Source of the DNA: an uncultured virus (IMG/VR IMGVR_UViG_3300027749_000064)
Lineage: Duplodnaviria; Heunggongvirae; Uroviricota; Caudoviricetes
Length of the DNA: 64,000 nucleotides
IMG/VR virus record: IMGVR_UViG_3300027749_000064
Direction: 5' to 3' (one strand)
Both the position numbers and the translations under genes were made by a program. Under the pieces are notes generated by a model, which searched no databases, was not told the origin of the DNA, and worked only from the letters and a program-made list of their open reading frames with translations. Positions 239 through 61,975 of this stretch are shown one piece after another (the stretch's first letter is position 1; every line of letters begins with the position of its first letter).

Positions 239-354
239 AATATATTCAATAGATGATGAATAATATCAGTTAATAATTATATATACATTGTTACTGGTTA
301 TAGAGCATATCATAATGCCCATCGTAATGTCAAATTTGCACACACATAAAATTA

Positions 355-370
355 TGTGATAAAAATCACA
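355..370. promoter_or_regulatory. CRP-type box
   Basis: TGTGA-TAAAAA-TCACA; second perfect box at 442-457. Confidence 0.7.
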
Positions 371-677
371 CTTTTTTGTGCATATTTTAGACAATTTTGA
401 TACAAATGTACACAATATGTTCACATTTTGAGATTATTCTGTGTGATTTTGATCACATTTTAAATATATTTATTTTTAGATACATTTATAAGATCATATA
501 CACAAACTTCCAGAGAATTTTATTATGCGTTCGTAATGTCTGGAAAAATATATAGCTCTTCGTAATGTTTATTATATGTATATGGATTAAGATTAAAAAA
601 GTTCCAGAGAAATTCCCGCCGAGTTCGTAATGTCTGATTAATTAATTAGCACGACACGACATTTTATATATTTAAAT

Positions 678-712
678 AAAGAAAAGCCCCGAGCAACATG
701 AAACTCGGGGCT
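678..712 (-). terminator. Intrinsic terminator
   Basis: AGCCCCGAG/CTCGGGGCT stem followed by a T-run on the minus strand, just after ORF 734-1030. Confidence 0.8.
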
Positions 713-733
713 AGGACTTAGTGTAGCGTCCCT

Positions 734-1030
734 TTATACTTGTAGGTACTCAACAGATCTCGGCACCTGTCTACCTACATTCCCCGTCAGACCCAACTCC
801 TCTAGGGAAAGATTTAAGTATTTACATATAGATTGTGTTTCTGCTAAGTGGAATGGAACTATTTTGGCTGTTGCCATTATGTTTATGTAGTTAACCATAT
901 ACTGAAGCAATGATTCATTTACATAAGCACTCTCGTGAAGCATTTTGTAAGCCAAAGCAGCAGGCGATAGGTCAGCGTGGCCTAGGCCCTCAACTATCTG
1001 CTTGTGTAACTTCTCGCTACGCACTGTCAT
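734..1030 (-). CDS. Hypothetical phage protein
   Basis: ORF track; translationally coupled to neighbour. Confidence 0.7.
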   Translation of the reverse strand: MTVRSEKLHKQIVEGLGHADLSPAALAYKMLHESAYVNESLLQYMVNYINIMATAKIVPFHLAETQSICKYLNLSLEELGLTGNVGRQVPRSVEYLQV

Positions 1031-1326
1031 TACTCTGTCTCCTCAACTGCTAAGATTAAATTTTCCTTAACTAGCCAGTCTACTACATCAGAGCCCTCTA
1101 TGTCAAACCCGCCCCAAGGTGTTGCCCAGAATGTATTCCAGATTGTTTTTAGATCTGTGTTAGGGGCCAAGATTGAATCCCATTCGTCTAGTTCCAGGAC
1201 CACATCACGTATGGTGTCCCATACAAACAGCCAACCCAGCGAGAAACCGACGGGGAGTGTCTGAAGATCATCTAGAATACTATTAAACTTATCATACAAC
1301 TCATCACCTAGATTTTCATTAACCAT
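1030..1326 (-). CDS. Hypothetical phage protein
   Basis: ORF track; start trimmed to MVNENL, which follows a GGAG SD. Confidence 0.7.
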   Translation of the reverse strand: MVNENLGDELYDKFNSILDDLQTLPVGFSLGWLFVWDTIRDVVLELDEWDSILAPNTDLKTIWNTFWATPWGGFDIEGSDVVDWLVKENLILAVEETE

Positions 1327-1549
1327 TTGCCTTCTCCAAATCTGATTGATAGAATATGATATCATAGCACATATTGTAGATATTTTCAATAGCGTCTAGA
1401 TAACCAATTGCCCATTGTTCATTTCCAAAATCCTTATGTTGCCATTCATACATAATGTTTTTCAGCTCCCCCTGCAGTACATCAATTAAAGGAACATTAT
1501 GTTCTATGGCCTTTTTCATTTGTGGAGATAAATCATTGTAATTAAGCAT
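1319..1549 (-). CDS. Hypothetical phage protein
   Basis: ORF track; overlapping start and stop with neighbours. Confidence 0.7.
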   Translation of the reverse strand: MLNYNDLSPQMKKAIEHNVPLIDVLQGELKNIMYEWQHKDFGNEQWAIGYLDAIENIYNMCYDIIFYQSDLEKANG

Positions 1550-2273
1550 TTGTCATCTCCCTATGATCTTCGCACTTGTCTATATCTGCACCATAGAAGC
1601 AATTGCGGCATACTTCATTTTCACAATCTTCACACCACATATCAGAAGGGTCTCCAATATATTTGTAATCACATTCATTGCATTGCCAGTTCCAAGATGT
1701 ATCTGATATTACTTCACCTCTAAGGATTTCCATTTCCCCGCCCCAGCCTGTCTCCTCTTCATATGAAAGCGTAAAGAGTAGTTCAGGATACTGAGAAGAT
1801 AGATTAGTTAATGCTTCATTAGGAACACCCCAAGCAGTATTAAAGTTATAATAAACTACTTTGTTATCGCCATTGTCAACAGGACCTTCCATACGTGTAT
1901 CAGGATATTGTTCTTCACTAGACACGGCAACGTCCCACTTAACACCCCAGTTGCGGAGATTCCAGTTGTACCAATCATTGCCGACCTCTTGTTCGGCGTG
2001 GACTTCTTTCCACATATCTTCGCCTTTGGCCTCAAGGTTAACTTTTGCCTTTGCGTGATTGTGATACGCCTCTAAGTCTGTTGGTTTAATTATATTCCAG
2101 AATGCGAAAAGCGGGGCGGGATAAAGAATATCTTTTGCAACACTTGTCTTAGTATTAATATCCCAAGCGTGGGGATGAAATACTTTAAATGGTTGATTCA
2201 TTTGATTTACTAATTTAGTTACAGATTCAGGATTACCTTCTATAGTTAATCCATTAAATACCCAGTTTGGCAT
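1542..2273 (-). CDS. DUF1281/YubB ferredoxin-like domain protein with C-terminal Cys-rich segment
   Basis: MPNW start; WYNW...NWGVKWD, FNTAWGVP, YPEL.F.L.YEE.G motifs. Confidence 0.75.
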   Translation of the reverse strand: MPNWVFNGLTIEGNPESVTKLVNQMNQPFKVFHPHAWDINTKTSVAKDILYPAPLFAFWNIIKPTDLEAYHNHAKAKVNLEAKGEDMWKEVHAEQEVGNDWYNWNLRNWGVKWDVAVSSEEQYPDTRMEGPVDNGDNKVVYYNFNTAWGVPNEALTNLSSQYPELLFTLSYEEETGWGGEMEILRGEVISDTSWNWQCNECDYKYIGDPSDMWCEDCENEVCRNCFYGADIDKCEDHREMTNA

Positions 2274-2455
2274 TATTTATTCTCCTCATCAAAGGCTCCA
2301 TAACTTGGAGTTATTCCGCTAAGCCACTCATAATAACTTAATTTTCCCCCTAATTCCCAGCATTGTAAACAGAAAGTGCCAAATTGTTGTGCTACAACAT
2401 AAGCAGGAATTGGAGAAATTGTTTTACAATTAGTACAAGTTATTCTTTCAGTCAT
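2273..2455 (-). CDS. Small CxxC...CxxC protein
   Basis: ORF track; AAAGGA SD and promoter upstream. Confidence 0.7.
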   Translation of the reverse strand: MTERITCTNCKTISPIPAYVVAQQFGTFCLQCWELGGKLSYYEWLSGITPSYGAFDEENK

Positions 2456-2482
2456 TATTGTCCTTTCGTTGGGTAGGGTCTT

Positions 2483-2504
2483 ATTGTAGCATAGGGTACT
2501 GACA
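2483..2504 (-). promoter_or_regulatory. PafBC/RecA-NDp-type promoter 1
   Basis: TGTCAG-TACCCTATGC-TACAAT. Confidence 0.8.
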
Positions 2505-2509
2505 TTTGG

Positions 2510-2743
2510 CTAGTCCCGCACCTTGTCAGTAGCCTCATCGTAAAGCAACCAGTCTATATCTATAGAATAGACAATCGTAATTGATTTGTCTAAAAGCTGG
2601 AGAACCACATGGTCCCCCTCTGTGTATCCAATTAGTTTAGCATCTTGAATTTGTTCACGACTAAAAGATCTATCTTCGTAAACGGCGGGAATGTGATTAA
2701 AGTAATAAGTATCACTATGAATACTATCCATTATATCAAGCAT
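2510..2743 (-). CDS. Hypothetical phage protein
   Basis: ORF track; start trimmed to MLDIMD. Confidence 0.6.
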   Translation of the reverse strand: MLDIMDSIHSDTYYFNHIPAVYEDRSFSREQIQDAKLIGYTEGDHVVLQLLDKSITIVYSIDIDWLLYDEATDKVRD

Positions 2744-2957
2744 TAGAATACTCCAATTCATTTTGTGATAAAGTAAATACAGTAAAATTAACACCATTGT
2801 TATAACAGAAGTTAACACAATTTATCAGAGATTCTGATTCATATAGTGGATATCCACCTGTATCGTAATCATTATCTAAATCAGGATATACTTCAAACAT
2901 ATTTATACCCCCTGGTGATACTGAATAATCTATTTCATATATTCTAAAGGTTTCCAT
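2736..2957 (-). CDS. Hypothetical phage protein
   Basis: ORF track; begins just after a sigmaA-like promoter (TAGACT-N18-TAAAAT), possibly leaderless. Confidence 0.65.
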   Translation of the reverse strand: METFRIYEIDYSVSPGGINMFEVYPDLDNDYDTGGYPLYESESLINCVNFCYNNGVNFTVFTLSQNELEYSNA

Positions 2958-3000
2958 AGGTAGATTTTAGCATATCGTAATCGTAAAAGTCTAATCGTAA

Positions 3001-3106
3001 TCTCATATTTTGAGATATATTTCAGTGATATATATCACATATCGTAAAGTGTGATTTTAATCACACCCCCGCGCCCAGCTGTCCCACTTTGTCAAGTGGG
3101 ACACGC
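3001..3106. promoter_or_regulatory. Regulatory cassette: TCTCA-N5-TGAGA palindrome, two CRP-type boxes (3024-3039, 3050-3065), 10-bp inverted repeat (3080-3103), GACACGC
   Basis: Read directly from sequence. Confidence 0.65.
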
Positions 3107-3112
3107 AAGGTT

Positions 3113-3316
3113 TTACATATAACTTACTATAAATTCCATAGTCATATGCAAATTACAATCACAATCATTTTTTGCAGAATCAAAGTGATCTTGATATTGC
3201 TCATAGATAAGTGTTACAAGTTCATCTATAGTGTATGGTTTATGTGTTGTGGTAATTGTGAACCTCTTCCATATATGAAATAAAACTTTCAAAACTGTGC
3301 CAATGTCCATTATCAT
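3113..3316 (-). CDS. Hypothetical protein (start uncertain)
   Basis: ORF track; overlaps upstream ORF. Confidence 0.4.
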   Translation of the reverse strand: MIMDIGTVLKVLFHIWKRFTITTTHKPYTIDELVTLIYEQYQDHFDSAKNDCDCNLHMTMEFIVSYM

Positions 3317-3605
3317 TTACCATTTGAGTAGTGAAATCTATTTCTACTACTTCGTCCATATAAGGTGTGTCAGCATTTGCTACATAGATACCGAAGCCTG
3401 TTTCGCTATCCCGCCCATCTTTTGTTAGTTGGTCAATTACAATGCGGAGAGCATACGGAACATCTCCCATATCAGTACGCTTTTTTGCGGCGGTAAGTGC
3501 TAACGCTAAATCCTCACGCCAAGTTGTTTCGCCCCAATGTGAATATAGCACAATGTTAGGCATATCTAACTCTGTTTTAAATACGAAATTAACTCTTGCT
3601 CCCAT
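3240..3605 (-). CDS. Hypothetical phage protein (LYSHWG motif)
   Basis: ORF track; start trimmed to MGARVNF after AGGAGG SD. Confidence 0.75.
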   Translation of the reverse strand: MGARVNFVFKTELDMPNIVLYSHWGETTWREDLALALTAAKKRTDMGDVPYALRIVIDQLTKDGRDSETGFGIYVANADTPYMDEVVEIDFTTQMVNDNGHWHSFESFISYMEEVHNYHNT

Positions 3606-3701
3606 TAAAGTATTCCTCCTATCGCTATAAATACTCCAAGTAATACTGCTAAGATTAAAACTACTGCCGTTGAGTTCATTATCATATCCTATCAAATAAG
3701 T

Positions 3702-3728
3702 GGCGGGAAGTCAATTACCCTTCCCGCC
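3702..3728 (-). terminator. Hairpin, probable terminator
   Basis: GGCGGGAAG/CTTCCCGCC just after the stop of 3737-4153. Confidence 0.55.
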
Positions 3729-3736
3729 CAAGTTAA

Positions 3737-4153
3737 TTAGAGATATTGAGCGATAGACTTCATAGTGGAAGCATTAACTGTTTCCTCATCTGTCATACGC
3801 AAGATGTTAAGAGCGTTTGTGATTTCCTCTTTGGAATTTTTGTATTCATAATTTGCCATTTGGTTAAACTCACGGGTTGGCTCAACAGGGAAGTTAGAGC
3901 CTTTTGTGCTGACATCAAAATCAACATTTAGAGTTTCACTCCAAGAACGATACCCTGTGCGAAGGTTAGTTGCGGTTGCGATATTAGCGAGAGCGAAGTC
4001 TTTTAGACTATCTTGCCAAGCCTTGTATGCTTCTTGGAACTTTGCTTCGTTGGCTTCTTGACCAGCGTAGTCTATCTCAATTTGGGCTAACTTAGCCTCT
4101 AGTGCCTTGATTACCTTTGGTGTTGCCACCTTTACTGTTATTGCTCTAGCCAT
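3737..4153 (-). CDS. Hypothetical phage protein
   Basis: ORF track; SD and dedicated promoter. Confidence 0.8.
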   Translation of the reverse strand: MARAITVKVATPKVIKALEAKLAQIEIDYAGQEANEAKFQEAYKAWQDSLKDFALANIATATNLRTGYRSWSETLNVDFDVSTKGSNFPVEPTREFNQMANYEYKNSKEEITNALNILRMTDEETVNASTMKSIAQYL

Positions 4154-4186
4154 TTGGTTTCCTTTGTTAGTTGGGTTGGTAGGATT

Positions 4187-4208
4187 ATTATATCAGGGGG
4201 GTCTGACA
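4187..4208 (-). promoter_or_regulatory. PafBC-type promoter 2
   Basis: TGTCAG-ACCCCCCTGA-TATAAT. Confidence 0.8.
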
Positions 4209-4216
4209 TAAACTTA

Positions 4217-4277
4217 AGTGCTAGTTCTTACTTACGACATTGGGCTAGAACTCTAGCAAACTGCCCCTGTTTCGTTG
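4217..4277 (-). ncRNA. Candidate small pseudoknotted RNA
   Basis: Own promoter, no ORF seen; GGGC/GCCC crossing UGCUAG(A)GUUCU/AGAACUAGCA. Confidence 0.4.
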
Positions 4278-4283
4278 TCCCCT

Positions 4284-4305
4284 ATTATATCATAGGGGTC
4301 TGACA
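4284..4305 (-). promoter_or_regulatory. PafBC-type promoter 3
   Basis: TGTCAG-ACCCCTATGA-TATAAT. Confidence 0.8.
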
Positions 4306-4533
4306 TTATGCTTCGTGCTTGGGCAAATCAACACGCACATTTTTCTGTATGTTAGAACTAATTAACTTACCTTGAAAAGCGACCATCATTTTTGCCAATT
4401 TCATTTCATCACCAGATGATAGTTCAATCTGGTTATCATTTAAGACTACATATTCAACGCCATATTGAATAGCCTTGCCCAATCCATAGCCCATTTGGGC
4501 TTTGGACGGGACTTCTAAAGTAATAACTGCCAT
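4306..4533 (-). CDS. Hypothetical phage protein
   Basis: ORF track. Confidence 0.7.
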   Translation of the reverse strand: MAVITLEVPSKAQMGYGLGKAIQYGVEYVVLNDNQIELSSGDEMKLAKMMVAFQGKLISSNIQKNVRVDLPKHEA

Positions 4534-4534
4534 A

Positions 4535-5158
4535 TTAGGATTCCTCTCTTACATCATAAATAGAATAATCATTTACATCTACATCAGCACCATAAGTGGA
4601 TACTGAAAGTTCATCATTTAACATAGTTTCTAAATCATAATTATCGGTTAAAGATACACGCATAATTCCACTTACTTCTATTGTGGCAGAAAACTCTATT
4701 TCTTTACTTAGTTCAAGATTAAATAAATCTGCGATAGTTGTTAAAGTATCTTGGTCATTACTGTCATCATAAGCGTCAATAATTATGTTATGAAGTGTAA
4801 CTAACTTGTTGTTGAAATCAGCAACATCACTCTTAAGTTGACGGGCTTCACGAAGTTTCCACTCTAAATCATTAACTTTATCAGTTTGATAAGTTGTTTC
4901 GTTATTCTCAATTATCTTGTAGGTAACGAGTAGGTTTGGGTTATATTCTGTTGAAATATCCATTTGTTCCTCTTTCTTTGTAGTTGGGTCTATTGTAACA
5001 TCTACCACCGACATCAGTATCATTTGTGTATCTGTCATACATTTTGGACACATATCACTTTGTGGAAGTCCATTAGATTTAATAGTCATTACAATATGGC
5101 TATCGCAATTTGGGCATACATAATCCCATTTAAACCAGGTTTCATTTTTATTTGTCAT
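4535..5158 (-). CDS. Hypothetical protein with N-terminal CxxC...CxxC ribbon; probable internal start at 4963
   Basis: ORF track; internal promoter and GAGGA SD before MDISTEY. Confidence 0.7.
   Translation of the reverse strand: MTNKNETWFKWDYVCPNCDSHIVMTIKSNGLPQSDMCPKCMTDTQMILMSVVDVTIDPTTKKEEQMDISTEYNPNLLVTYKIIENNETTYQTDKVNDLEWKLREARQLKSDVADFNNKLVTLHNIIIDAYDDSNDQDTLTTIADLFNLELSKEIEFSATIEVSGIMRVSLTDNYDLETMLNDELSVSTYGADVDVNDYSIYDVREES
4992..5013 (-). promoter_or_regulatory. PafBC-type promoter 4 (intragenic)
   Basis: TGTCGG-TGGTAGATGT-TACAAT. Confidence 0.75.
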
Positions 5159-5165
5159 AGCGAGT

Positions 5166-5194
5166 ATTTTAGCAGGTTACTCACGGGTAATCAA
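5166..5194 (-). promoter_or_regulatory. sigmaA-type promoter with palindrome in spacer and GACACGCC next to -35
   Basis: TTGATT-N17-TAAAAT with TGn. Confidence 0.7.
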
Positions 5195-5239
5195 ACGACA
5201 CGCCGTAAAACTCAGGGTGATTTTTATCACACTCGTAAC

Positions 5240-5266
5240 GACACGCCCGACCTCGGGGGGCGCGGC
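5240..5266. repeat. GC-rich dispersed repeat, copy 1 (one extra G)
   Basis: GACACGCCCGACCTCGGGGG(G)CGCGGC; CRP-type box at 5216-5231. Confidence 0.95.
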
Positions 5267-5267
5267 C

Positions 5268-5305
5268 CATGCATAATTATACATTGCAATGCATATTTAT
5301 ACATT
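5268..5305. promoter_or_regulatory. Tandem ARG (ArgR) boxes
   Basis: CATGCATAATTATACATT-GC-AATGCATATTTATACATT (18+2+18). Confidence 0.7.
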
Positions 5306-5314
5306 GAAGCTTTG

Positions 5315-5390
5315 CGATCCGTACGGGATTTGAACCCGTGGTCTCTACAGTGACAGTGTAGTGAATTAAACCAAACTATTCTAACGGACC
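5315..5390 (-). tRNA. tRNA-Asp (GTC), CCA not encoded
   Basis: Manual cloverleaf: acceptor GGTCCGT/ACGGATC, D arm GAAT/ATTC, anticodon arm CTACA-CTGTCAC-TGTAG, T arm ACGGG-TTCAAAT-CCCGT, discriminator G. Confidence 0.95.
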
Positions 5391-5396
5391 TTGCGG

Positions 5397-5421
5397 TGAG
5401 CAGTTTTTACACTTGCTCAGG
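5397..5421 (-). other. Conserved hairpin motif, copy 1
   Basis: CCTGAGCAAGTGTAAAAACTGCTCA; other copies at 10812-10836 and 11356-11380. Confidence 0.65.
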
Positions 5422-5432
5422 TGTTGCGAATT

Positions 5433-6461
5433 TTATTTCGCTAGTGCTAAGACTTGCTTAACAATTTTATTTTTTTCAGCAGTTACAACAGGGTCAAAAC
5501 CACTTGCGCCTGCCATTAGGCTATCGCCATCTTTTCGGGCTGTGCGATAATAATCTAGGCGTTCTGTGAGAGCATTTACAACACCCCACGCAGTACCCTT
5601 GATATTATTATTGGTAGGCGAATTGTGATAAAGTTCATCAAGCAATACAACCTTATTTTCCCATTTCTTGATTGAACCCTTTTTGTCCAATTCAGGCTTT
5701 GGGTACATCTTGTTAATGATTTCTGAAAACTTTTTATCAGTAACAGAAATTGCGAATAGTTCTTGCGCTTGCTTTTCAAATTCATCAGCATATGCGAAAG
5801 TTAATCCGAGAGCCTCTCGTGCTTGAGCAATTTTACCATCAACAGTTTGTGTATGACGGATTTTGAAACTCTGCTTTGCTTTTTTCATAGCAAAATTAAG
5901 AGTGTTTTGGCACATAACACGAACAGGGGTAATAGCAGATTGAACCGCTACTGAGCCATCGTGTGAAGTCCAAACAATTAGATAAAGTTTTGTTTCATCG
6001 TTCACACCTTTAGGGTCTAATACGATTGTGCGGGGAACGGACATTGTGCCAAACACAACATTGCCACCCTTGAGAGAGCCTGCGCTTTCCCAAAATACAT
6101 CTTGATTTCCATCGTGTAAGTTATCAGCAAACGAAAATAATTCCTCGTTTTGAACTTCTTTATAGCGTGAACCTACAACGGAGAGAACATCAGTTTGTCC
6201 CGCAGTATAAGGGTTATCACGAATTACAAGTTGATTATCCTTGAGAGAGTTCCAATTCTCAGGGAGATAATCAGCAACAGGAGCAAGGCGAACGTTCCAA
6301 TTAGATAGTTTAGCACCATCTAACATTTGAGCAGTTGTTACTGCTTCATCTTGATTGAATACCTTATTGGCAAAAGAGTGCCAAGCGGGTACTGTGCGGA
6401 GATTTACGGCAAGAGAAACTTCTCCGCCTTCAACCTCTGATTTATGAGCCAAGTTGGTCAT
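5433..6461 (-). CDS. DUF932 family phage/plasmid protein
   Basis: PAWH, VGSRYKEVQN, ESAGSLKGG, SHDGS, TPVRVMCQNTL, GTAWGVVNALTE motifs. Confidence 0.9.
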   Translation of the reverse strand: MTNLAHKSEVEGGEVSLAVNLRTVPAWHSFANKVFNQDEAVTTAQMLDGAKLSNWNVRLAPVADYLPENWNSLKDNQLVIRDNPYTAGQTDVLSVVGSRYKEVQNEELFSFADNLHDGNQDVFWESAGSLKGGNVVFGTMSVPRTIVLDPKGVNDETKLYLIVWTSHDGSVAVQSAITPVRVMCQNTLNFAMKKAKQSFKIRHTQTVDGKIAQAREALGLTFAYADEFEKQAQELFAISVTDKKFSEIINKMYPKPELDKKGSIKKWENKVVLLDELYHNSPTNNNIKGTAWGVVNALTERLDYYRTARKDGDSLMAGASGFDPVVTAEKNKIVKQVLALAK

Positions 6462-6490
6462 ATGATTTCCTTTCTTTGTTTGTTAAATTG

Positions 6491-6512
6491 AGTATAACAT
6501 ATGGCACCGACA
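6491..6512 (-). promoter_or_regulatory. PafBC-type promoter 5
   Basis: TGTCGG-TGCCATATGT-TATACT. Confidence 0.8.
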
Positions 6513-6604
6513 TTTGTCCACTTTAAATAATCATTTTAAGACACATTCAACCAATTTTGCGTGTGAGAAATATCACAGAGATTTTTTCGGCGTGTCGTAA
6601 ATGC

Positions 6605-6630
6605 GACACGCCCGACCTCGGGGGCGCGGC
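6605..6630. repeat. GC-rich dispersed repeat, copy 2
   Basis: Exact 26-mer; CRP-type box at 6562-6577; inverted GGCGTGTCG at 6589. Confidence 0.95.
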
Positions 6631-6777
6631 CCAAAAATTTAATTTTGTCAAGTCAACACGCAGCTATTTTTTAAATAAAAAAAATATTTTTAATATAACA
6701 ATAATGGCCACCGTGTAAAATAATTGTGAAAACACGTTGACCATTAATTGCATTTTATCCCCTCGTTTAAATATATT

Positions 6778-6933
6778 TTATAAGATCTTTTGTTTTTCTA
6801 CAATTTTTCTAGCCTTTGCAGATAACGGTTTACCTGGGCAGTTCATATGAAAATAAGTTATTAGCATATCTTCTTCATTTGTTGTTGTGGCCCCGCATTT
6901 ATGGCAGGACCACGATTCTTTTTTATTCTTCAT
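6778..6933 (-). CDS. Small Cys/His protein (MKNKKESWSCHKCG...), not in ORF track
   Basis: Manual translation, 51 aa, overlaps stop of upstream gene. Confidence 0.45.
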   Translation of the reverse strand: MKNKKESWSCHKCGATTTNEEDMLITYFHMNCPGKPLSAKARKIVEKQKIL

Positions 6934-7246
6934 CAGTGTACACGCATTCTGCACAGTCGCATTCCCATGAATGCGGTAGCCATGCGTCTAAGTGATGCGC
7001 TTCTGCAATTGCGGATGCGGGAGCACTTTCTTCTCCACGCCATGACACGCCTTCGGGAAGTTTAATCAAGCGAGAATAATCTTCTTCATGATATGCATCA
7101 ATTGCATCTAGGCAAGGTTGCACCATTGAAGAGGGGACGGGTGGGTAGTGATTACCCTTCAAGTGAATTTTTAATTGTGTGCGAATATCTATAGCCATAT
7201 CCGCTAGATCATTTGCAAAAACACTTCCCATATTAGTTATCTCCAT
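6923..7246 (-). CDS. Hypothetical phage protein (HLxGNHYPP motif)
   Basis: ORF track. Confidence 0.75.
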   Translation of the reverse strand: MEITNMGSVFANDLADMAIDIRTQLKIHLKGNHYPPVPSSMVQPCLDAIDAYHEEDYSRLIKLPEGVSWRGEESAPASAIAEAHHLDAWLPHSWECDCAECVYTDEE

Positions 7247-7517
7247 TTTCTATTGAATCAAACATATTTTGAATTTCTAGGGCTTCATCCGCCATTTTAT
7301 CAAAGTCCTCACCCATTAGCAAGTGCGACACTCTAGTAGCGACTACACTAGCAAGTAAAGTAGAATAAGCAAACATCATTTCAGAAATACGATCTAATTT
7401 TTCTGAATTACCTTCAGCATAGTCCCAAGCAATTTCACGAGCAGCATTCATCACTTCAATATCAATTACTGAATCAGCAGTCGCTTCTCTAATTTCAAAG
7501 AAAGTAGAAATACTCAT
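7233..7517 (-). CDS. Hypothetical phage protein
   Basis: ORF track. Confidence 0.7.
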   Translation of the reverse strand: MSISTFFEIREATADSVIDIEVMNAAREIAWDYAEGNSEKLDRISEMMFAYSTLLASVVATRVSHLLMGEDFDKMADEALEIQNMFDSIENGDN

Positions 7518-7723
7518 TATTCCACCACCTTTAATAATGCGTAAGAATTATTTTCGTTTAATTCATCTAAGATATCTGTTAGTTTAGGAACGATTAACGC
7601 CTTAAGCATATCCTCAAGCATAGCCACTTGTTGTTCATATGGGAGAGATAGTAGACGGCGGGCAGTAGGATTATTTTCATCCAATTCTGTTTCAAACTTT
7701 AGCGTGTGAGGGATTTTTACCAT
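7517..7723 (-). CDS. Hypothetical phage protein
   Basis: ORF track; SD. Confidence 0.7.
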   Translation of the reverse strand: MVKIPHTLKFETELDENNPTARRLLSLPYEQQVAMLEDMLKALIVPKLTDILDELNENNSYALLKVVE

Positions 7724-7757
7724 TTATTTATTGTCCTTTTCTTTGTTGGGAGTAGTT

Positions 7758-7779
7758 AGTATATCACGAGCCACCGACA
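7758..7779 (-). promoter_or_regulatory. PafBC-type promoter 6
   Basis: TGTCGG-TGGCTCGTGA-TATACT. Confidence 0.8.
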
Positions 7780-7843
7780 TTAGTTCGGTGGAGAAAGTGT
7801 TATCTATGAAATTATTCCATAGTGTATCAAGTTGATTATTCAT

Positions 7844-8047
7844 TTATTCCCCTTCGTCATATTCTAGGGACATAGGGAAGGCATCTAGCCCCATAAATCC
7901 CATATCTTCTTGATCATAGCACTCAGGGCAGACATAGTCATCGCCATATATTTCATATTCATCTACGGAGTAAAAAGTTTCTTTAGCCCCGCATATTTCA
8001 TAGTATAGACACGCTACTACAAAAATTTCATCTTGTTGATTTATCAT
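7844..8047 (-). CDS. Small acidic Cys-containing protein
   Basis: Start trimmed to MINQQD, downstream of promoter and AAAGG SD. Confidence 0.65.
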   Translation of the reverse strand: MINQQDEIFVVACLYYEICGAKETFYSVDEYEIYGDDYVCPECYDQEDMGFMGLDAFPMSLEYDEGE

Positions 8048-8078
8048 AAGTTTACCTTTCTTGTTGTTGATATTGGCA

Positions 8079-8100
8079 AGTATAACATAGGGCACCGACA
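8079..8100 (-). promoter_or_regulatory. PafBC-type promoter 7
   Basis: TGTCGG-TGCCCTATGT-TATACT; CRP-type box at 8129-8144. Confidence 0.8.
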
Positions 8101-8337
8101 CGATCAAACAACACGCCGCAAAACTCAGGGTGATTAAAATCACACTCGTAACACGGCGTGTCGGCTTGACAGCCGCGGCAAAAAATTTGCAGCTTTTGCA
8201 AACTACAAATTTATTTTTTTATTTATTCAAATTTATTTTTATATTTATTTTTTCTTGAATAAATTTTTTTATTTTTAATTGGTGTTGCCGCATTACTGCG
8301 ACGCAATTCTTGAATGCGTTTTACTTTTTCCATAATT

Positions 8338-8541
8338 TTATTTACCCCCAATTTTACCACCACGATACAAAATTTTTGTATGTAATTTCCCGCTTGGCTC
8401 TAATAAATTAACAGTTGCGTATTCATTAGCAAATCCCCAATCAACAAAACTGCGATAAGAATTTACTGCGTCTAACGCATTATCTAACACCATTGACCAA
8501 TGCGGTGCTTTGCCATCATAGGCACAAGTTATTTTGTACAT
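8338..8541 (-). CDS. Hypothetical phage protein
   Basis: ORF track. Confidence 0.7.
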   Translation of the reverse strand: MYKITCAYDGKAPHWSMVLDNALDAVNSYRSFVDWGFANEYATVNLLEPSGKLHTKILYRGGKIGGK

Positions 8542-8633
8542 TAGTTATTTCTCCAAACATTTATTGCATAGGGCATAATTATTTGAGAAATAAACACGAT
8601 AACATCTAACGCATTTGCTTAGTTTAGTTTTCA

Positions 8634-8822
8634 TTAGTTATTCTCCCAATTCTTGAATAGTTGGTGAAAATCTGCAATTTTTTCCGCAGAAATTTGAGTT
8701 GGATTACACTCACAATAATCAAAATCAAAATCTCCGTCTGGTGATGACCAACCTGTGAAACCTTGACCATAGCACTCAGGGCAAGTTAAAATTTCGGTGA
8801 TTACTTCTTTTACTTTAGACAT
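8634..8822 (-). CDS. Small protein with CPECYGQG...CEC motif
   Basis: Start trimmed to MSKVKE after AAAGGA. Confidence 0.7.
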   Translation of the reverse strand: MSKVKEVITEILTCPECYGQGFTGWSSPDGDFDFDYCECNPTQISAEKIADFHQLFKNWENN

Positions 8823-8864
8823 TAGTTGTCCTTTCTTGTTTGACATTTACACTTTGTTAATTGT

Positions 8865-8886
8865 ATTCTATCACCCACCACCGACA
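8865..8886 (-). promoter_or_regulatory. PafBC-type promoter 8
   Basis: TGTCGG-TGGTGGGTGA-TAGAAT. Confidence 0.8.
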
Positions 8887-8925
8887 AGGTGGCGAGTGTT
8901 GAACAGTTATCGCATAAGTAAATCA

Positions 8926-9147
8926 TTACTCATCTACTTTGATATAAACAGTTGCGAAAAAATCAGGCTTAGGGTAACCTTCGCCTGTGTAAGTTGGGCG
9001 AACTTTACAAGCGAACGCATAAACGCCTTCGCTTAAACCGCAAATATCTTTTCGCAATTTTGCGTATTGGATAATTCCGTCTTGACCTGTTCGGGCATAA
9101 GAACGGCTACGATAGTATTTTCCCTCTAGGGCTTCTGAGATTAGCAT
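8926..9147 (-). CDS. Hypothetical phage protein
   Basis: ORF track; SD. Confidence 0.7.
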   Translation of the reverse strand: MLISEALEGKYYRSRSYARTGQDGIIQYAKLRKDICGLSEGVYAFACKVRPTYTGEGYPKPDFFATVYIKVDE

Positions 9148-9254
9148 TATTTGCTACCTTCTTTCTTTGTTGAGTTAATTATAACATTTACCACCGACAC
9201 GGCAGACTGACGGCGGGTTTCAAGTACGTGTGCCTTGAATTCATCTAGGTTCAT
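9147..9254 (-). CDS. Micro-protein MNLDEFKAHV...
   Basis: Trimmed start after GAAGG SD and promoter 10. Confidence 0.5.
   Translation of the reverse strand: MNLDEFKAHVLETRRQSAVSVVNVIINSTKKEGSK
9178..9199 (-). promoter_or_regulatory. PafBC-type promoter 9
   Basis: TGTCGG-TGGTAAATGT-TATAAT. Confidence 0.8.
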
Positions 9255-9285
9255 TATTTGACCTTCTTTCTTTCTTGTTATGGCA

Positions 9286-9307
9286 AGTATACCAAAACCC
9301 ACTGACA
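9286..9307 (-). promoter_or_regulatory. PafBC-type promoter 10
   Basis: TGTCAG-TGGGTTTTGG-TATACT. Confidence 0.8.
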
Positions 9308-9426
9308 TTATTCTACTTACTAGCCAGTAATTCCATATTTTGAGACGCTCAAGCGGTGTGATAAATATCACACGACACGCCCGAAAGATGAATTTTAGAT
9401 GAATTTTAATCCACACGTAATCCACA

Positions 9427-9452
9427 GACACGCCCGACCTCGGGGGCGCGGC
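9427..9452. repeat. GC-rich dispersed repeat, copy 3
   Basis: Exact 26-mer; CRP-type box at 9357-9372. Confidence 0.95.
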
Positions 9453-9517
9453 AAAAAATTTGCAGCTTTTTAATTCTGCAAATCTTTTTTATTTTTATTT
9501 ATTTTTATTTATTTTTT

Positions 9518-9631
9518 TTATTTAAAATTTTTAAAAATTTCTTCAACAATTTTTAACTGTTCATCGTTAAGATGTTCAATTTGAATTGCATCTGCAAATC
9601 CAAAAATATCTTTTTGATTTTCATTAGTCAT
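9518..9631 (-). CDS. Micro-protein MTNENQKDIFGFAD..., not in ORF track
   Basis: Manual translation, 37 aa, overlaps upstream stop. Confidence 0.45.
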   Translation of the reverse strand: MTNENQKDIFGFADAIQIEHLNDEQLKIVEEIFKNFK

Positions 9632-9818
9632 TGAAACATGCTTCCCAAAAACGATCCGCATCAAAATTTGGATTATCGTTTTCAAAAATTGTTATGAAAC
9701 GATTTACCAAACCATTTTCAAATTCATTTGTAAAAGATGGGCGGGTTTCCAAATTATTTTCTTTTAAATAATCATTAAGGATTTTAGCCGTAGCGATATA
9801 AGTTTTTCTAGTCATCAT
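9624..9818 (-). CDS. Small protein, paralog of 10847-11026
   Basis: MMTRK.Y.ATA.ILN...DN..FD.DRFWE.CF shared. Confidence 0.8.
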   Translation of the reverse strand: MMTRKTYIATAKILNDYLKENNLETRPSFTNEFENGLVNRFITIFENDNPNFDADRFWEACFND

Positions 9819-9911
9819 TTATTTATTCTCTTCAATCTCATCTAGTAGTTCCCAAAGAATTGGCTCTAACGCTTTTGCGCTTTCATCTAATTTTTCTTGT
9901 AGTGTTTTCAT
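9819..9911 (-). CDS. Micro-protein MKTLQEKLDESAKALEPILWELLDEIEENK, not in ORF track
   Basis: Fills the gap between neighbours exactly. Confidence 0.6.
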   Translation of the reverse strand: MKTLQEKLDESAKALEPILWELLDEIEENK

Positions 9912-10118
9912 TTATTTATAGTATTCCATTTCTGTTAGTAAGTGAGCATAACCATCTTTATTAGACTTTAGCGATAATTCGCAAGGCTCGCATTTCCATT
10001 CATATTTTAATGTTCTACCTGTTCCCAATGTTGCAACAGCCCAATGGGTCATTTTACGAGAACACACAGGGCAGTAGCAAGAAATTTCTTGCCCTAGCCC
10101 ACCAATTTTAATAGTCAT
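9912..10118 (-). CDS. Small Zn-ribbon protein
   Basis: CPVC...CEPC. Confidence 0.7.
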   Translation of the reverse strand: MTIKIGGLGQEISCYCPVCSRKMTHWAVATLGTGRTLKYEWKCEPCELSLKSNKDGYAHLLTEMEYYK

Positions 10119-10312
10119 TATTTAACCACGCTTTCTTTAAATTCTTTTTGATTACAAGTTAAGGCAAGGATTTCACCCTTAGCATTTACGATACGAGCAT
10201 TTACTATATCGTGTTCATCACTAACATTAGTGATTTCATTTATTAGGTAATTCTCATTTTTCCAAATAAAGAGACACCCTACGAATAATTTATTTATAAG
10301 TGTTAAAGTCAT
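10118..10312 (-). CDS. Hypothetical phage protein
   Basis: ORF track; start trimmed to MTLTLI. Confidence 0.6.
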   Translation of the reverse strand: MTLTLINKLFVGCLFIWKNENYLINEITNVSDEHDIVNARIVNAKGEILALTCNQKEFKESVVK

Positions 10313-10506
10313 TAGATACACACCACGCATTCACACTTAGGGGCATTAACAGATAATAAAATTTTTAACAACGCTTTACGCTGTCCAAAATTTAAGCCAT
10401 AAGTGGATTTACACCCACCATTATTAAAATCGTGTATGATACGATTTTCTAATTCCGCACTAATATTTAGTGCCTTACCTATATTTATTTTATTTAGTGT
10501 AGTCAT
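10312..10506 (-). CDS. Hypothetical phage protein
   Basis: ORF track; AAAGGTGG SD. Confidence 0.7.
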   Translation of the reverse strand: MTTLNKINIGKALNISAELENRIIHDFNNGGCKSTYGLNFGQRKALLKILLSVNAPKCECVVCI

Positions 10507-10541
10507 CTTAGACCACCTTTCTTTATTGTTTAACTATCGTT

Positions 10542-10570
10542 AGTTTAGCAGACTTTCTGCCGAAAATCAA
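10542..10570 (-). promoter_or_regulatory. sigmaA-type promoter with adjacent GACACGCC
   Basis: TTGATT-N17-TAAACT; a second promoter TAGACA-N17-TACAAT at 10627-10655. Confidence 0.7.
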
Positions 10571-10738
10571 GGCGACACGCCGTAGATTTCTAACTTTTTT
10601 TTCTATATTTAATTTTCTATAATGGAATTGTAACATAAAAAATCGCTACTGTCTAGTATACTCGTGAGTAGTCTCAATATATGGAGCGTGGGCTTTGTGA
10701 TAAAAATCACAAAGATTTTTTTAATCGTACGTAAATGC

Positions 10739-10764
10739 GACACGCCCGACCTCGGGGGCGCGGC
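10739..10764. repeat. GC-rich dispersed repeat, copy 4
   Basis: Exact 26-mer; 34-bp identity with 6597-6630; CRP-type box at 10696-10711. Confidence 0.95.
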
Positions 10765-10770
10765 GAAAAA

Positions 10771-10784
10771 CGAACAGATGTTCG
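10771..10784. promoter_or_regulatory. Gram-positive-type LexA (SOS) box
   Basis: CGAAC-AGAT-GTTCG. Confidence 0.75.
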
Positions 10785-10846
10785 CATTAAAAAAATAGCT
10801 GTAAAAAAAATTAAGCAGTTTTAAAACTTACTTAGGTTTTTATTTT

Positions 10847-11026
10847 TTAAACGTTTAAATTTTTAAAACACTCTTCCCAAAATCTATCGCTATCAAATCT
10901 TTCGTTATCAGCGAAAAACATTTCGGAAAAATCATTTACTAAATCTTCAAACACTTCTAATTTCATTTCGCCACCATAAGAATTTAAAATCTCTGCGGTT
11001 GCTACGTAGTCTTTTCTTGTCATCAT
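10847..11026 (-). CDS. Small protein, paralog of 9624-9818, not in ORF track
   Basis: MMTRKDYVATAEILNSY...FADNERFDSDRFWEECF; AAGGA SD. Confidence 0.8.
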   Translation of the reverse strand: MMTRKDYVATAEILNSYGGEMKLEVFEDLVNDFSEMFFADNERFDSDRFWEECFKNLNV

Positions 11027-11057
11027 TTTTGTTCTTTTCCTTTTCTTTAGTTAATAG

Positions 11058-11136
11058 ATTAAGTGGGGCATAGGTTGATTACGGAGACTTACTCGCACTC
11101 TTGCCTTAAGACTCAGCGAAGCCCGACCCACTTAAT
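11058..11136 (-). ncRNA. Candidate structured intergenic RNA
   Basis: Closing stem AUUAAGUGGG/CCCACUUAAU around nested helices. Confidence 0.4.
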
Positions 11137-11152
11137 TATATTTATTATAGCA

Positions 11153-11323
11153 TTACTTAGATGTTTTAACCATTGCTAAACGCTTTGAGCCATTTGCTAA
11201 AGTTAAACCAACACGAGTTACTTTGTTAGAAATTGGAGCGAAAGAATTTATTCGTCCAGTAATTCCAGTTGTTGATGTTGTGAATAAATCACCGATTTGG
11301 TAAGTGTATCCTTGTATTGTCAT
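11153..11323 (-). CDS. Small beta-rich protein, paralog of 11404-11568, not in ORF track
   Basis: MTIQGYTYQIGDLFTT...TGRI...PIS..TRV; SD. Confidence 0.8.
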   Translation of the reverse strand: MTIQGYTYQIGDLFTTSTTGITGRINSFAPISNKVTRVGLTLANGSKRLAMVKTSK

Positions 11324-11403
11324 TTATTTTATATCCTTTTCTTTTGTTGGGTTGTTGAGCAGTTTTATATCTTGCTCAGGATATTTAGGGTATTTCCCTA
11401 AAC

Positions 11404-11568
11404 TTATGCGAGTGAAACTGTTGTGTAACGCTCTGTTCCATCAACATCAAGCAGAACACGAGTTAGTGTTTTGCTAATTGGTTCAATAGCCTTGATAACG
11501 CCTGTTACCTTGCTTTTTTGTGTAGTGAATAAATCACCGATTTGGTAAGTCTTGTTATTTATAGTCAT
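11404..11568 (-). CDS. Small beta-rich protein, paralog of 11153-11323, not in ORF track
   Basis: MTINNKTYQIGDLFTT...TGVI...PIS..TRV; SD and promoter. Confidence 0.8.
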   Translation of the reverse strand: MTINNKTYQIGDLFTTQKSKVTGVIKAIEPISKTLTRVLLDVDGTERYTTVSLA

Positions 11569-11600
11569 TTTTTTCCTTTTCTTTTGTTGTTGTTAGTGAT

Positions 11601-11622
11601 AGTCTACCATAGACTACCGACA
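11601..11622 (-). promoter_or_regulatory. PafBC-type promoter 11
   Basis: TGTCGG-TAGTCTATGG-TAGACT. Confidence 0.8.
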
Positions 11623-11630
11623 TTTGCTTT

Positions 11631-11816
11631 CTATCTTTGATTTAATAAAGATTTACAACCTGCGAAGGGGCATCTTATATGTTGCGCCCTATGGATTTTA
11701 TAAGTATATTTTCCGACATTAGAAAGGCGGGGGCTATGGTGAGTGCTACCATAAGCGGGGGCGGGAATTAGTAGTGCTATTAGAATTACTATAACTATTC
11801 TTTTAATCATTTCCAC
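11631..11816 (-). CDS. Small protein with signal-peptide-like N-terminus
   Basis: KRIVIVILIALLIPAPAYG. Confidence 0.6.
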   Translation of the reverse strand: MEMIKRIVIVILIALLIPAPAYGSTHHSPRLSNVGKYTYKIHRAQHIRCPFAGCKSLLNQR

Positions 11817-11910
11817 CCCTTAACTTCTTTAGCCATATAGTAAAACATCATACCAAAGAAAGGCAAAGATATCAACATTATAGCCCGTAGGGCATAGGTG
11901 AGATATATCA

Positions 11911-12075
11911 CTAGAGTACCTCATCTATATCAAAATTATCTACGGCTAGAAAGACATCTGCCATTTCATCAGCGTCAGATTTAGCCTCTGCTAATTCATC
12001 TAACATAGTATCAAAGGTATCGGCAAGTGTTTCCCACTTGTCTGTCTTTCTATCAAACGAATATGAGTAAGTCAT
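11911..12075 (-). CDS. Small acidic protein
   Basis: Start trimmed to MTYSYS. Confidence 0.6.
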   Translation of the reverse strand: MTYSYSFDRKTDKWETLADTFDTMLDELAEAKSDADEMADVFLAVDNFDIDEVL

Positions 12076-12218
12076 TATTTGACCCCCGCACAATTCATAT
12101 TGCCACTTCCGAGAGTAGCATAAGCAGAAAGTGGTCTACCATTTTGATAGATGATTTTTTCACTACAACGAGAGCAGGTTGTAACCTGTTCGGTAGGTTG
12201 AGTAGGATTGTGTAACAT
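12075..12218 (-). CDS. Small CxxC protein, first gene of the leftward arm
   Basis: Start trimmed to MLHNPT after GAGGT SD. Confidence 0.6.
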   Translation of the reverse strand: MLHNPTQPTEQVTTCSRCSEKIIYQNGRPLSAYATLGSGNMNCAGVK

Positions 12219-12279
12219 ATTAGTTACCTCTATTCTTTTAATTAGATTGAGAACCTTTCTCAATTTCTTTAATACTGTA

Positions 12280-12308
12280 ATTATAGCACACAAAATCGGA
12301 AAAGTCAA
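12280..12308 (-). promoter_or_regulatory. Consensus sigmaA promoter
   Basis: TTGACT-N17-TATAAT with TGn; GACACGCC at 12311. Confidence 0.8.
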
Positions 12309-12482
12309 GCGACACGCCGTTAATTACACGCTTGTAATTAGTGATATACACCACAAAACGCCCTATTTCTAGACATACTGGCGAGTAATGTCTAATATTC
12401 GGGCGCACTATTATTTTTTTATTTTTTTATTTAAAAAGTGTATCATGCATTTTAAAAATCCATTCACATTTTGACCAAATGT

Positions 12483-34163: not shown

Positions 34164-34164
34164 T

Positions 34165-56468: not shown

Positions 56469-56489
56469 TAAACAATGAGGAGGTAAAAA

Positions 56490-61405: not shown

Positions 61406-61455
61406 AATGACCAAAAAGTGGTATAATCTATATATAAATAAGAAAAGGTGGAATC

Positions 61456-61965: not shown

Positions 61966-61975
61966 TGGGGGTAAG

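Follow-up and report, generated by a model that had tools for sequence, protein, structure and literature searches.

Eleven predicted promoters with the architecture TGTCRG-N10-TANNNT precede the small genes of one block in the genome of an uncultured phage and, in our best reading, to which we give an even chance, host PafBC would adapt σA RNA polymerase to them. The window analysed (the whole stretch of 64,000 nucleotides, with a GC content of 35%) was scanned for this pattern. Its 11 matches all lie on the minus strand within positions 2483–11622, with 0.89 expected by chance (100 shuffles preserving dinucleotides; sd 0.91, largest value 3). The same 11 matches, and no others, are found in the whole 73,470-base virus record, where a back-to-front control pattern gives one match. 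The sites, termed class II promoters here, and the neighbouring elements are:

11601..11622, minus strand: predicted class II promoter, TGTCGG-N10-TAGACT; first in the block, 54-aa gene 11404–11568 downstream
9286..9307, minus strand: predicted class II promoter, TGTCAG-N10-TATACT; short ORF starting near 9254 downstream
9178..9199, minus strand: predicted class II promoter, TGTCGG-N10-TATAAT; gene 8926–9147 downstream
8865..8886, minus strand: predicted class II promoter, TGTCGG-N10-TAGAAT; gene 8634–8822 downstream
8079..8100, minus strand: predicted class II promoter, TGTCGG-N10-TATACT; gene 7844–8047 downstream
7758..7779, minus strand: predicted class II promoter, TGTCGG-N10-TATACT; genes 7517–7723, 7233–7517 and 6923–7231 downstream
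6491..6512, minus strand: predicted class II promoter, TGTCGG-N10-TATACT, with −35-like TGGACA; DUF932 gene 5433–6461 and tRNA-Asp 5314–5390 downstream
4992..5013, minus strand: predicted class II promoter, TGTCGG-N10-TACAAT; inside ORF 4535–5158
4284..4305, minus strand: predicted class II promoter, TGTCAG-N10-TATAAT; no ORF ahead of the next promoter
4187..4208, minus strand: predicted class II promoter, TGTCAG-N10-TATAAT; 138-aa gene 3737–4153 downstream
2483..2504, minus strand: predicted class II promoter, TGTCAG-N10-TACAAT; genes 2273–2455, 1542–2273 (DUF1281_C), 1319–1549, 1030–1389 and 734–1030 downstream
685..712, minus strand: terminator-like hairpin of 10 pairs, including 7 G-C, with a T-run; downstream end of the minus-strand block
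734..11568, minus strand: gene block behind the 11 predicted promoters, with about 30 small genes, most of them unnamed

The geometry of the sites is strict. When spacings between box and −10 from 6 to 15 were scanned, spacing 10 gave the 11 sites in the block and every other spacing none or one. Relaxing the hexamer by one position, whichever the position, never gained the block more than one site, and no credible site was gained by relaxing its T, G, T or C. A TGTCTG at 7913–7934, the only plausible extra site, was rejected; it falls within a Cys-Pro-Glu-Cys coding stretch. The −26 element with its invariant GTC is present in the 11 sites and in all 84 clustered, co-oriented sites collected from seven phage records, whose hexamer has A (43 sites) or G (41 sites) at the fifth position. 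TGn directly precedes the −10 in every site of the block, giving an extended −10, and in 63 of the 84. A GAAAGGA-type Shine-Dalgarno sequence and an ATG are found 27–42 nt past the −10 in ten sites; the exception is 4284–4305, where the next promoter lies 97 nt further on and an 83-nt downstream stretch folds no better than shuffles (z = −0.73). The original prediction of 11 minus-strand sites with an exact 10-nt spacing, an extended −10 and, in most cases, a Shine-Dalgarno sequence behind them is borne out in each of these respects. Its assignment of the sites to the PafBC architecture also holds, the match being exact to the consensus published for PafBC, tGTCgg(N10)tA(N3)T with a −26 element at −28 to −23 (PMC8635444, in the text available). 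We infer from the sequence that the eleven sites are promoters.

The genes behind the 11 promoters are small unnamed phage genes and those for DUF932, a DUF1281_C protein and a weak DpnI-like protein; no DNA-damage-response gene was found among them. The 54-aa and 138-aa genes are conserved in every motif-bearing relative tested. Promoter 9286..9307 has orthologous sites in relatives G003 and G005, and 8079..8100 additionally has a GGCGTGTTG box upstream and a −35-like TTGATC. Behind the intra-ORF promoter 4992..5013 stand a Shine-Dalgarno sequence and, at 4963, an ATG in frame, from which a shorter isoform of the ORF 4535–5158 product would start; the same arrangement recurs at 63222 in the complete relative G001. 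Canonical −35/−10 promoters are also predicted in the block (17237–17209, 12308–12280, and those at the GGCGTGTCG sites 10573 and 5196). GGCGTGTCG is a second repeated box, which contains GACAC and sits just upstream of −35 hexamers, and a further operator-like element of the block is TGTGA-N6-TCACA.

The phage is an uncultured, lake-type, WhiB-encoding, distant relative of the Streptomyces phages of the Stanwilliamsviridae; Streptomyces phages are its nearest cultured kin, with about 53% portal identity. The mycobacterial frame in which the sites had been placed originally is wrong in view of the GC content of the window, this kinship and the absence of arrays from five mycobacteriophages; the phage is not a mycobacteriophage. 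An actinobacterial host is likely because of WhiB, the Streptomyces-phage kin, a leaderless-type TANNNT placement and a PASTA-domain protein found in G001. WhiB (PF02467) is encoded here, and a search of 10 records found it in 8; it is described as confined to Actinobacteria and the phages that infect them (PMC10202952; likewise PMC6282962, in the portion available). The leaderless-type placement of TANNNT, 6 nt ahead of the start codon, is enriched, with 37 cases against 7–32 at other distances. The RecA-NDp promoter itself reaches beyond mycobacteria into other Actinobacteria, according to the accessible part of PMC8223512.

Records with as little as 48–65% portal identity to the one studied here also have co-oriented arrays, of 9–21 sites. 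A Shine-Dalgarno sequence and a start codon lie within 14–80 nt of the site in 74 of the 84 cases, and sites are kept ahead of non-homologous genes in distant relatives. G007 retains the extended −10 in only 8 of its 20 sites and still keeps the box and the N10 spacing. The arrays of distant relatives, the placement before Shine-Dalgarno and start codon and the G007 pattern indicate that the box is under selection while its surroundings drift. Two cultured Streptomyces relatives lack arrays; in one cultured relative, Streptomyces phage Jay2Jay, the pattern matches twice and the control pattern 5 times.

The position of the block matches that of the long terminal repeat of Jay2Jay, the synteny being based on DUF932 and on downstream glycosyltransferase, ribonucleotide reductase and portal genes. 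The Jay2Jay repeat is likewise a one-direction block of about 11 kb with many small genes, nearly each with its own promoter, and early promoter arrays in long terminal repeats are found in SPO1 and T5. Unlike the TGTCRG class, the promoters of the syntenic Jay2Jay block are of an ordinary type (TTGTAT/TTGCAT-17-TAGACT), so that host polymerase alone probably reads it, which suggests early transcription.

In the reading that we favour, which retains the hijack of the host response proposed originally, the housekeeping σA RNA polymerase of the host would read the eleven promoters by “sigma adaptation”. Host PafBC, bound to single-stranded DNA, would be placed between σ region 4 and DNA and would read TGTCRG at −28 to −23 instead of a −35 element, σ reading the TGnTAnAnT −10. 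The block of about 11 kb of small early-type genes would be tied in this manner to the appearance of single-stranded DNA in the infected cell, with resected phage ends, breaks in host DNA and the onset of phage replication as possible sources, and the phage would need no activator of its own. We infer here an actinobacterial host that has PafBC, the action of PafBC at the sites, and the timing. This reading is favoured because sequence and spacing equal the published consensus at 11 sites where 0.89 are expected, because no phage-encoded reader was found (see below), and because the box is conserved across a diverse phage group. The likely actinobacterial host, the sites that lack a −35 (see below) and the early transcription suggested by the Jay2Jay block also speak for it.

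PafBC (RecA-NDp) promoters of Mycobacterium and other Actinobacteria have the same 22-nt layout, tGTCgg-N10-tA-N3-T, in the available text of PMC8635444, PMC11804915 and PMC8223512, and share with the phage sites the invariant GTC, the box at −28 to −23 and a σA-type −10. They precede chromosomal repair genes, whereas the phage carries 11 co-oriented copies in 9 kb ahead of small unnamed genes, with A about as frequent as G at the fifth position and an extended −10 as the usual state. Published PafBC promoters are without a −35. Most phage copies have none either, the −35 match being at most 2/6 in 19 of 37 sites, but a −35-like hexamer is present in a third: the match is at least 4/6 in 13 of 37, compared to 14% of 20,000 control positions. 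The class II promoters are not strictly −35-less.

Several observations count against PafBC. The extended −10 at all 11 sites possibly makes them active without any activator, and the −35-like hexamers also count against it. The promoters do not serve DNA-repair genes, and waiting for single-stranded DNA would be an odd start for the earliest genes. The host-PafBC reading is weakened further by the array-free Streptomyces phages and mycobacteriophages, whose hosts have PafBC, and by a scan of cellular genome bins, in which the only two matches were phage-like contigs binned with Bacteroidetes.

The original prediction had allowed for a PafBC mimic encoded by the phage outside the window, a suggestion that the search for a reader does not sustain. 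The WYL domain (PF13280, six-frame search, E ≤ 1) was found in none of ten phage records, this one included and three of them 99–100% complete, which makes a phage-borne PafBC copy unlikely. Pfam identified no HTH or sigma factor, only WhiB, among the 152 ORFs of G001, and no MotA- or AsiA-like family was found among these ORFs or those of the window. It is unlikely, in our judgement, that a phage-encoded activator or sigma appropriator of the MotA/AsiA kind, with a fold absent from libraries, reads TGTCRG; the promoters would then form a “middle” class, with their likeness to the PafBC box due to convergence or mimicry. In T4, a single temporal gene class is under the control of many middle promoters; their MotA box is centred at −30 and T4 itself supplies the MotA/AsiA factors. 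The layout of those promoters, with a box in place of the −35 at a fixed distance from a good σ70-type −10, is the same as here (a parallel named in the part of PMC8635444 available), although box sequence and position differ. The canonical promoters, those at GGCGTGTCG sites included, could fire first, and other repeated control motifs in cultured relatives suggest that the block switches promoter class readily. Candidates for such a factor would be four ORFs common to the motif-bearing G001, G006, G007 and G009 and not found in motif-free Jay2Jay (54 aa, 138 aa, 296 aa and a 59-aa FmdB zinc ribbon). However, the 54-aa and 138-aa genes are themselves behind class II promoters; for the model of the 138-aa protein (pLDDT 80.6), the PDB gave nothing at E ≤ 0.001, and the model of the 54-aa protein (pLDDT 92.7) is a generic SH3/KOW-like barrel without significant match. 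Besides the lack of WYL, HTH and sigma domains in the phages searched, an unrelated factor would have to match the PafBC hexamer and the exact 10-nt spacing by chance.

The sites could also be self-sufficient extended −10 σA promoters in which TGTCRG is a spacer operator for a phage or host repressor, or for a timing factor, that shuts the early block off. We find this improbable: the box is asymmetric, 6–9 nt long and at one fixed position in 84 of 84 sites, which better fits a polymerase contact, and the 12 of 20 G007 sites without an extended −10, most of them without a −35, would be weak on their own. The prevalence of TGn, the usable −35 in a third of sites and the richness of the block in operator-like elements (GGCGTGTCG and TGTGA-N6-TCACA) are consistent with it.

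It is quite improbable that another host factor reads the box, be it host WhiA with phage WhiB, ClgR, or a lineage-specific feature of the host polymerase. WhiA/WhiB co-activated promoters, as described in the available text of PMC10243135, are also an actinobacteria-specific adaptation of σA polymerase, and WhiB is encoded by the phage; the box reads GACA on its opposite strand, and GACA forms the core of GACAC, the WhiA motif given there. According to an earlier report, cited in the accessible part of PMC5656591, ClgR binds this same RecA-independent promoter. WhiA boxes vary in orientation and in how far upstream of the −35 they lie (PMC10243135, same text), whereas the TGTCRG box is fixed in the spacer; of the 84 sites, 62 have A before TGTC and just 11 have G, so that GACAC is mostly not formed, and WhiB is present in motif-free Jay2Jay too. 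The WhiA/WhiB description fits the second class in the block, the separate GGCGTGTCG-TTGAY promoters, which do have GACAC upstream of the −35. Finally, that the sites are not promoters and represent a repeated element kept for packaging, recombination or as copies of a duplicated cassette is hardly credible, given their orientation with the genes, their near-consensus −10 located 27–42 nt before a Shine-Dalgarno sequence and start codon, the dissimilar flanks outside motif and leader, and their maintenance before non-homologous genes in distant relatives.

No published description of such phage arrays of PafBC-type promoters was found in the literature. More tentatively, and at rather less than an even chance, we propose that a family of abundant uncultured 95–112-kb phages of low-GC freshwater actinobacteria has no activator of its own for its early-type block and uses the single-stranded DNA alarm of the host, PafBC, as a switch through 9–21 copies of the DNA-damage promoter of the host. 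Neighbouring promoters would be wired to host WhiA (with phage WhiB) and to a CRP-type regulator, the start-up programme being drawn largely from host regulator sites. If PafBC does read the promoters, they would be the first example found in which a host DNA-damage activator, acting by sigma adaptation, controls a temporal class of genes in a lytic-type phage; to our knowledge, known phages rely instead on a sigma factor, appropriator or polymerase that they supply themselves. The arrays would also provide a compact natural set of about 100 PafBC-type promoter variants for structure-function work and a sequence signature to assign uncultured phages to actinobacterial hosts, and PafBC biology would be extended beyond mycobacteria to streamlined lake actinobacteria.

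The window carries eleven minus-strand TGTCRG-N10-TANNNT sites between 2483 and 11622, exactly at the coordinates of the original prediction, where 0.89 would be expected by chance (sd 0.91, maximum of 3 in 100 shuffles). It corresponds to bases 8636-72635 of a 73,470-base IMG/VR record rated 66% complete, in which no copy of the pattern was found beyond these eleven and a back-to-front control pattern occurs once. Alignment of the sites gives aTGTCRGtgS-N4-mTGnTAnAmT. The fixed 10-nt distance proposed for the two boxes was borne out: among spacings of 6 to 15 nt, the minus-strand small-gene block (734-11568) has its array at N10 alone (11 sites), against 0-1 at each other spacing, and relaxing the TGTCRG hexamer at any one position adds at most one site in the block. 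A TGTCTG copy at 7913-7934, although kept in the complete relative G001, was rejected as a twelfth site because it falls within the part of gene 7844-8047 that codes for Cys-Pro-Glu-Cys. The predicted surroundings of the boxes are also present, with a TGn ahead of the -10 (extended -10) in 11 of 11 sites and a GAAAGGA-type Shine-Dalgarno sequence plus ATG, 27-42 nt downstream, in ten. We infer from their sequence that the eleven sites are promoters (class II promoters hereafter). The block ends at the following element:

685-712, terminator-like hairpin

The next element downstream of site 4284-4305 is another class II promoter, and the stretch after this orphan promoter folds no better than shuffled sequences. 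Another site, 4992-5013, is internal to a minus-strand ORF of 207 aa (4535-5158) that has a canonical promoter upstream, at about 5196. It is followed by a Shine-Dalgarno sequence and an in-frame ATG at 4963, and would thus yield a 142-aa isoform; the same layout is found in G001. A search for the complement of the class II leader, as in an anti-leader small RNA, gave no convincing minus-strand match. Three lake-water RNA runs contain 0.31, 0.29 and 0.18 of the words sampled from window 2400-11700.

The GC content of the window is 30-40% throughout; it is therefore not that of a mycobacteriophage, and the mycobacterial frame in which the array was first placed has to be given up. The window codes for a portal, a prohead protease, a capsid protein, a 2551-aa tape measure, a class II ribonucleotide reductase and glycosyltransferases. 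In tblastn the portal comes closest to those of Stanwilliamsviridae phages of Streptomyces, among them Beuffert and Blueeyedbeauty, with ~53% identity across 97% of its length. The same Streptomyces phages match the DUF932 protein of 5433-6461 (~50%); in them its gene is found close to the left end in minus orientation, and twice per record. Megablast of window 2000-12000 against phages gave no match. In Jay2Jay, a cultured Streptomyces phage related to the window phage, the left genome end corresponds to the DUF932 position, and its genes come again at the right end, which suggests a ~11-kb terminal repeat. Window and Jay2Jay share their gene order: a minus-strand small-gene block, further minus-strand genes, then a divergent plus-strand part with glycosyltransferase, ribonucleotide reductase and portal genes. 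This common order puts the promoter block at the place of the putative Jay2Jay terminal repeat. The window has a ~15-kb insert, absent from Blueeyedbeauty, that separates the ribonucleotide reductase gene from the portal gene and includes three tandem plus-strand paralogues of ~740 aa each with EPTP-type repeats (29716-36393).

The portal has 463 relatives in IMG/VR, and five longer ones (G001-G005) were scanned for the motif:

G001 (108 kb, 100% complete): 9 sites in a one-strand cluster, 56462-63243
G005: 15 sites, 273-9467
G003: 6 sites, 285-2923
G002 and G004 (fragments): 2 and 3 sites

When a 14-base version of the motif was run against IMG/VR, at least 141 stretches matched. Among the 80 loci examined of these, 55 show the general pattern 2-8 times in one orientation over ~3 kb and have a GC content of 37-47%, while the 25 single matches range from 28% to 68% GC. 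Five records among the matches listed carry arrays of 9-21 co-oriented sites, whereas the control pattern gives 0-2. The portals of three are 65%, 50% and 48% identical to that of the window, the other two being fragments without a portal; the distance of these records from the window phage is therefore as great as that of the Streptomyces phages. Across a pooled set of 84 clustered sites from seven records, the fifth hexamer position is A in 43 and G in 41, and a Shine-Dalgarno sequence with a start codon follows 74 sites. In the older RecA-NDp consensus (the promoter type of the actinobacterial DNA-damage activator PafBC) 'gtg' continues after TGTCR. TG directly follows the hexamer in 51 of the 84 sites. 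The extended -10 varies, being present in 63 sites overall and in merely 8 of 20 in G007, so the conserved core of the class II promoters is the box and its spacing.

No array was found in the cultured relatives Jay2Jay (two pattern matches, five for the control) and Blueeyedbeauty (none, two for the control), and the mycobacteriophages Bxz1, L5, TM4, Omega and Barnyard have 0-1 matches each, equal to controls. The small-gene block of Jay2Jay uses promoters of the form TTGTAT/TTGCAT-17-TAGACT. At the right end of Blueeyedbeauty (112001-130473) almost all small genes have a GC-rich hairpin and then AAGCTTCC in front of them, ~20 nt before the start codon, a repeated control element unlike that of the window.

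Several features bear on the host. A WhiB-like protein is encoded outside the window, at G000:C1:2095-2268 of the whole record, and WhiB was found in three of five related records and in all of a further five, the two apparently WhiB-less ones being 66-77% fragments. According to PMC10202952, WhiB is confined to Actinobacteria and their phages. Strong Shine-Dalgarno sequences at genes were counted as a further sign of an actinobacterial host. A TANNNT exactly 6 nt ahead of the start codon, the leaderless layout, is enriched, occurring 37 times where other distances give 7-32; with a TGnTATAAT -10 it is found at many genes of G001, G006, G007, G009 and the window's own record (e.g., G006:C1:16039-17199), and gene 6940-7332 of G006 is a gene of this layout driven by a predicted class II promoter. 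G001 also encodes a PASTA-domain protein. We consider an actinobacterial host likely. An alignment of WhiB to cellular genome bins matched solely two phage-like contigs (WhiB 78-85% identical) in MAGs labelled Bacteroidetes/Bacteroidia. Since WhiB, strong Shine-Dalgarno use and TATAAT-type promoters are unlike Bacteroidetes, these are probably phage contigs mis-binned by composition and give no host evidence either way. A protein-cluster atlas searched with WhiB returned viral WhiB clusters only and no host clue.

The published in vivo consensus of PafBC is tGTCgg(N10)tA(N3)T, in which, as described there, the PafB HTH reads GTC at -28 to -23, the '-26 element', while PafC touches σA region 4 at promoters without a -35 consensus (PMC8635444). 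The RecA-NDp type is reported to reach past mycobacteria to other Actinobacteria (PMC8223512). The phage sites fit the published sequence and spacing exactly, but agree with the absence of a -35 consensus only in part: TTGACA is matched at two or fewer positions in 19 of 37 sites and at four or more in 13 of 37, against 14% of control positions. We judge it most likely, with moderate confidence, that a putative host PafBC adapts σA polymerase to the class II promoters. This is preferred because the match of a 6-nt box and its exact spacing to the only -26 element known in the likely host phylum is hard to ascribe to chance and because the phages have no recognisable reader. Against it, both the host and its PafBC are presumed, the genes behind class II promoters are not repair genes, and arrays of this kind were not found in phages whose hosts are known to carry PafBC. 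None of the titles and abstracts listed in a literature search on PafBC or RecA-NDp together with phages dealt with TGTCRG-N10-TANNNT promoters in phages.

It is possible, if doubtful, that a phage-encoded appropriator reads the box, perhaps with a fold not yet in libraries. The suggestion that a PafBC mimic is encoded outside the window found no support, as a six-frame WYL search at E≤1 returned nothing in ten records, including G001 (100% complete), G006 (100%) and G009 (99%). Pfam identified WhiB as the sole transcription factor among 152 G001 ORFs of at least 50 aa, and none in the window ORFs; WhiB is not motif-specific, since the motif-free Jay2Jay has it too. When ORFs of the non-structural part of G001 (52-108 kb) were compared by tblastn with the motif-bearing G006, G007 and G009 and with Jay2Jay, four were common to all motif-bearing genomes and not found in Jay2Jay:

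11404-11568, minus, 54-aa protein
3737-4153, minus, 138-aa protein
296-aa protein
59-aa FmdB-type zinc ribbon

The 54-aa and 138-aa proteins, presumably early ones, recur in every motif-bearing relative tested, with identity falling to 26-51%; their genes adjoin each other in G006, G007 and G009 and are themselves behind class II promoters. The 138-aa model (pLDDT 80.6) had a best Foldseek E-value of 0.61, with no PDB match or fold assignment, and the 54-aa model (pLDDT 92.7), which forms a small SH3/KOW/Tudor-like barrel, had no match at E≤0.001; neither predicted fold gave a DNA-binding assignment. Self-sufficient extended -10 promoters, with the box as an operator, are unlikely. That the extended -10 is universal among the window sites counts against host PafBC.

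Other control elements are found in the block. The GGCGTGTCG box has 15 copies at ≤1 mismatch against 1.46 expected, 14 of them at 652-12318. As a rule a TTGAY -35 follows the box at 1-2 nt and is itself followed, after a 17-nt spacer, by a TGn -10. A CRP/GlxR-like palindrome, TGTGA-N6-TCACA, has 11 copies, where 2.73 are expected and shuffled sequences reach 7 at most. Ten of the copies are in the block, at 355-10711, often between two GGCGTGTCG boxes:

12310-12318, 10573-10581, 5196-5204 and 8109-8117, minus, examples of GGCGTGTCG
355-370, 442-457, 3050-3065, 6562-6577, 9357-9372 and 10696-10711, TGTGA-N6-TCACA, besides five one-mismatch copies
5239-5265, 6604-6630, 9426-9452 and 10738-10764, four copies of a GC-rich hairpin-forming element in a 35% GC genome, CGACACGCCCGACCTCGGGGGCGCGGC on the plus strand

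No T-run follows the CGACACGCCCGACCTCGGGGGCGCGGC hairpin on either strand. Two GGCGTGTCG boxes make a perfect inverted repeat at 6589-6612, and G001 carries GGCGTGTCG-NN-TTGACA on both strands. As GGCGTGTCG contains GACAC, the WhiA motif reported upstream of the -35 in WhiA/WhiB-activated promoters (PMC10243135), and the phage encodes WhiB, host WhiA and phage WhiB may activate this promoter class. That a different host factor, such as WhiA with phage WhiB, reads the class II box is quite unlikely. It is very improbable that the class II sites are not promoters at all.

For PafBC to join polymerase, the DNA is reported to need a promoter of the PafBC type, and PafBC itself must have bound single-stranded DNA (PMC11804915). 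If a host PafBC indeed serves the class II promoters, the small-gene block would be expressed once the infected cell contains single-stranded DNA.
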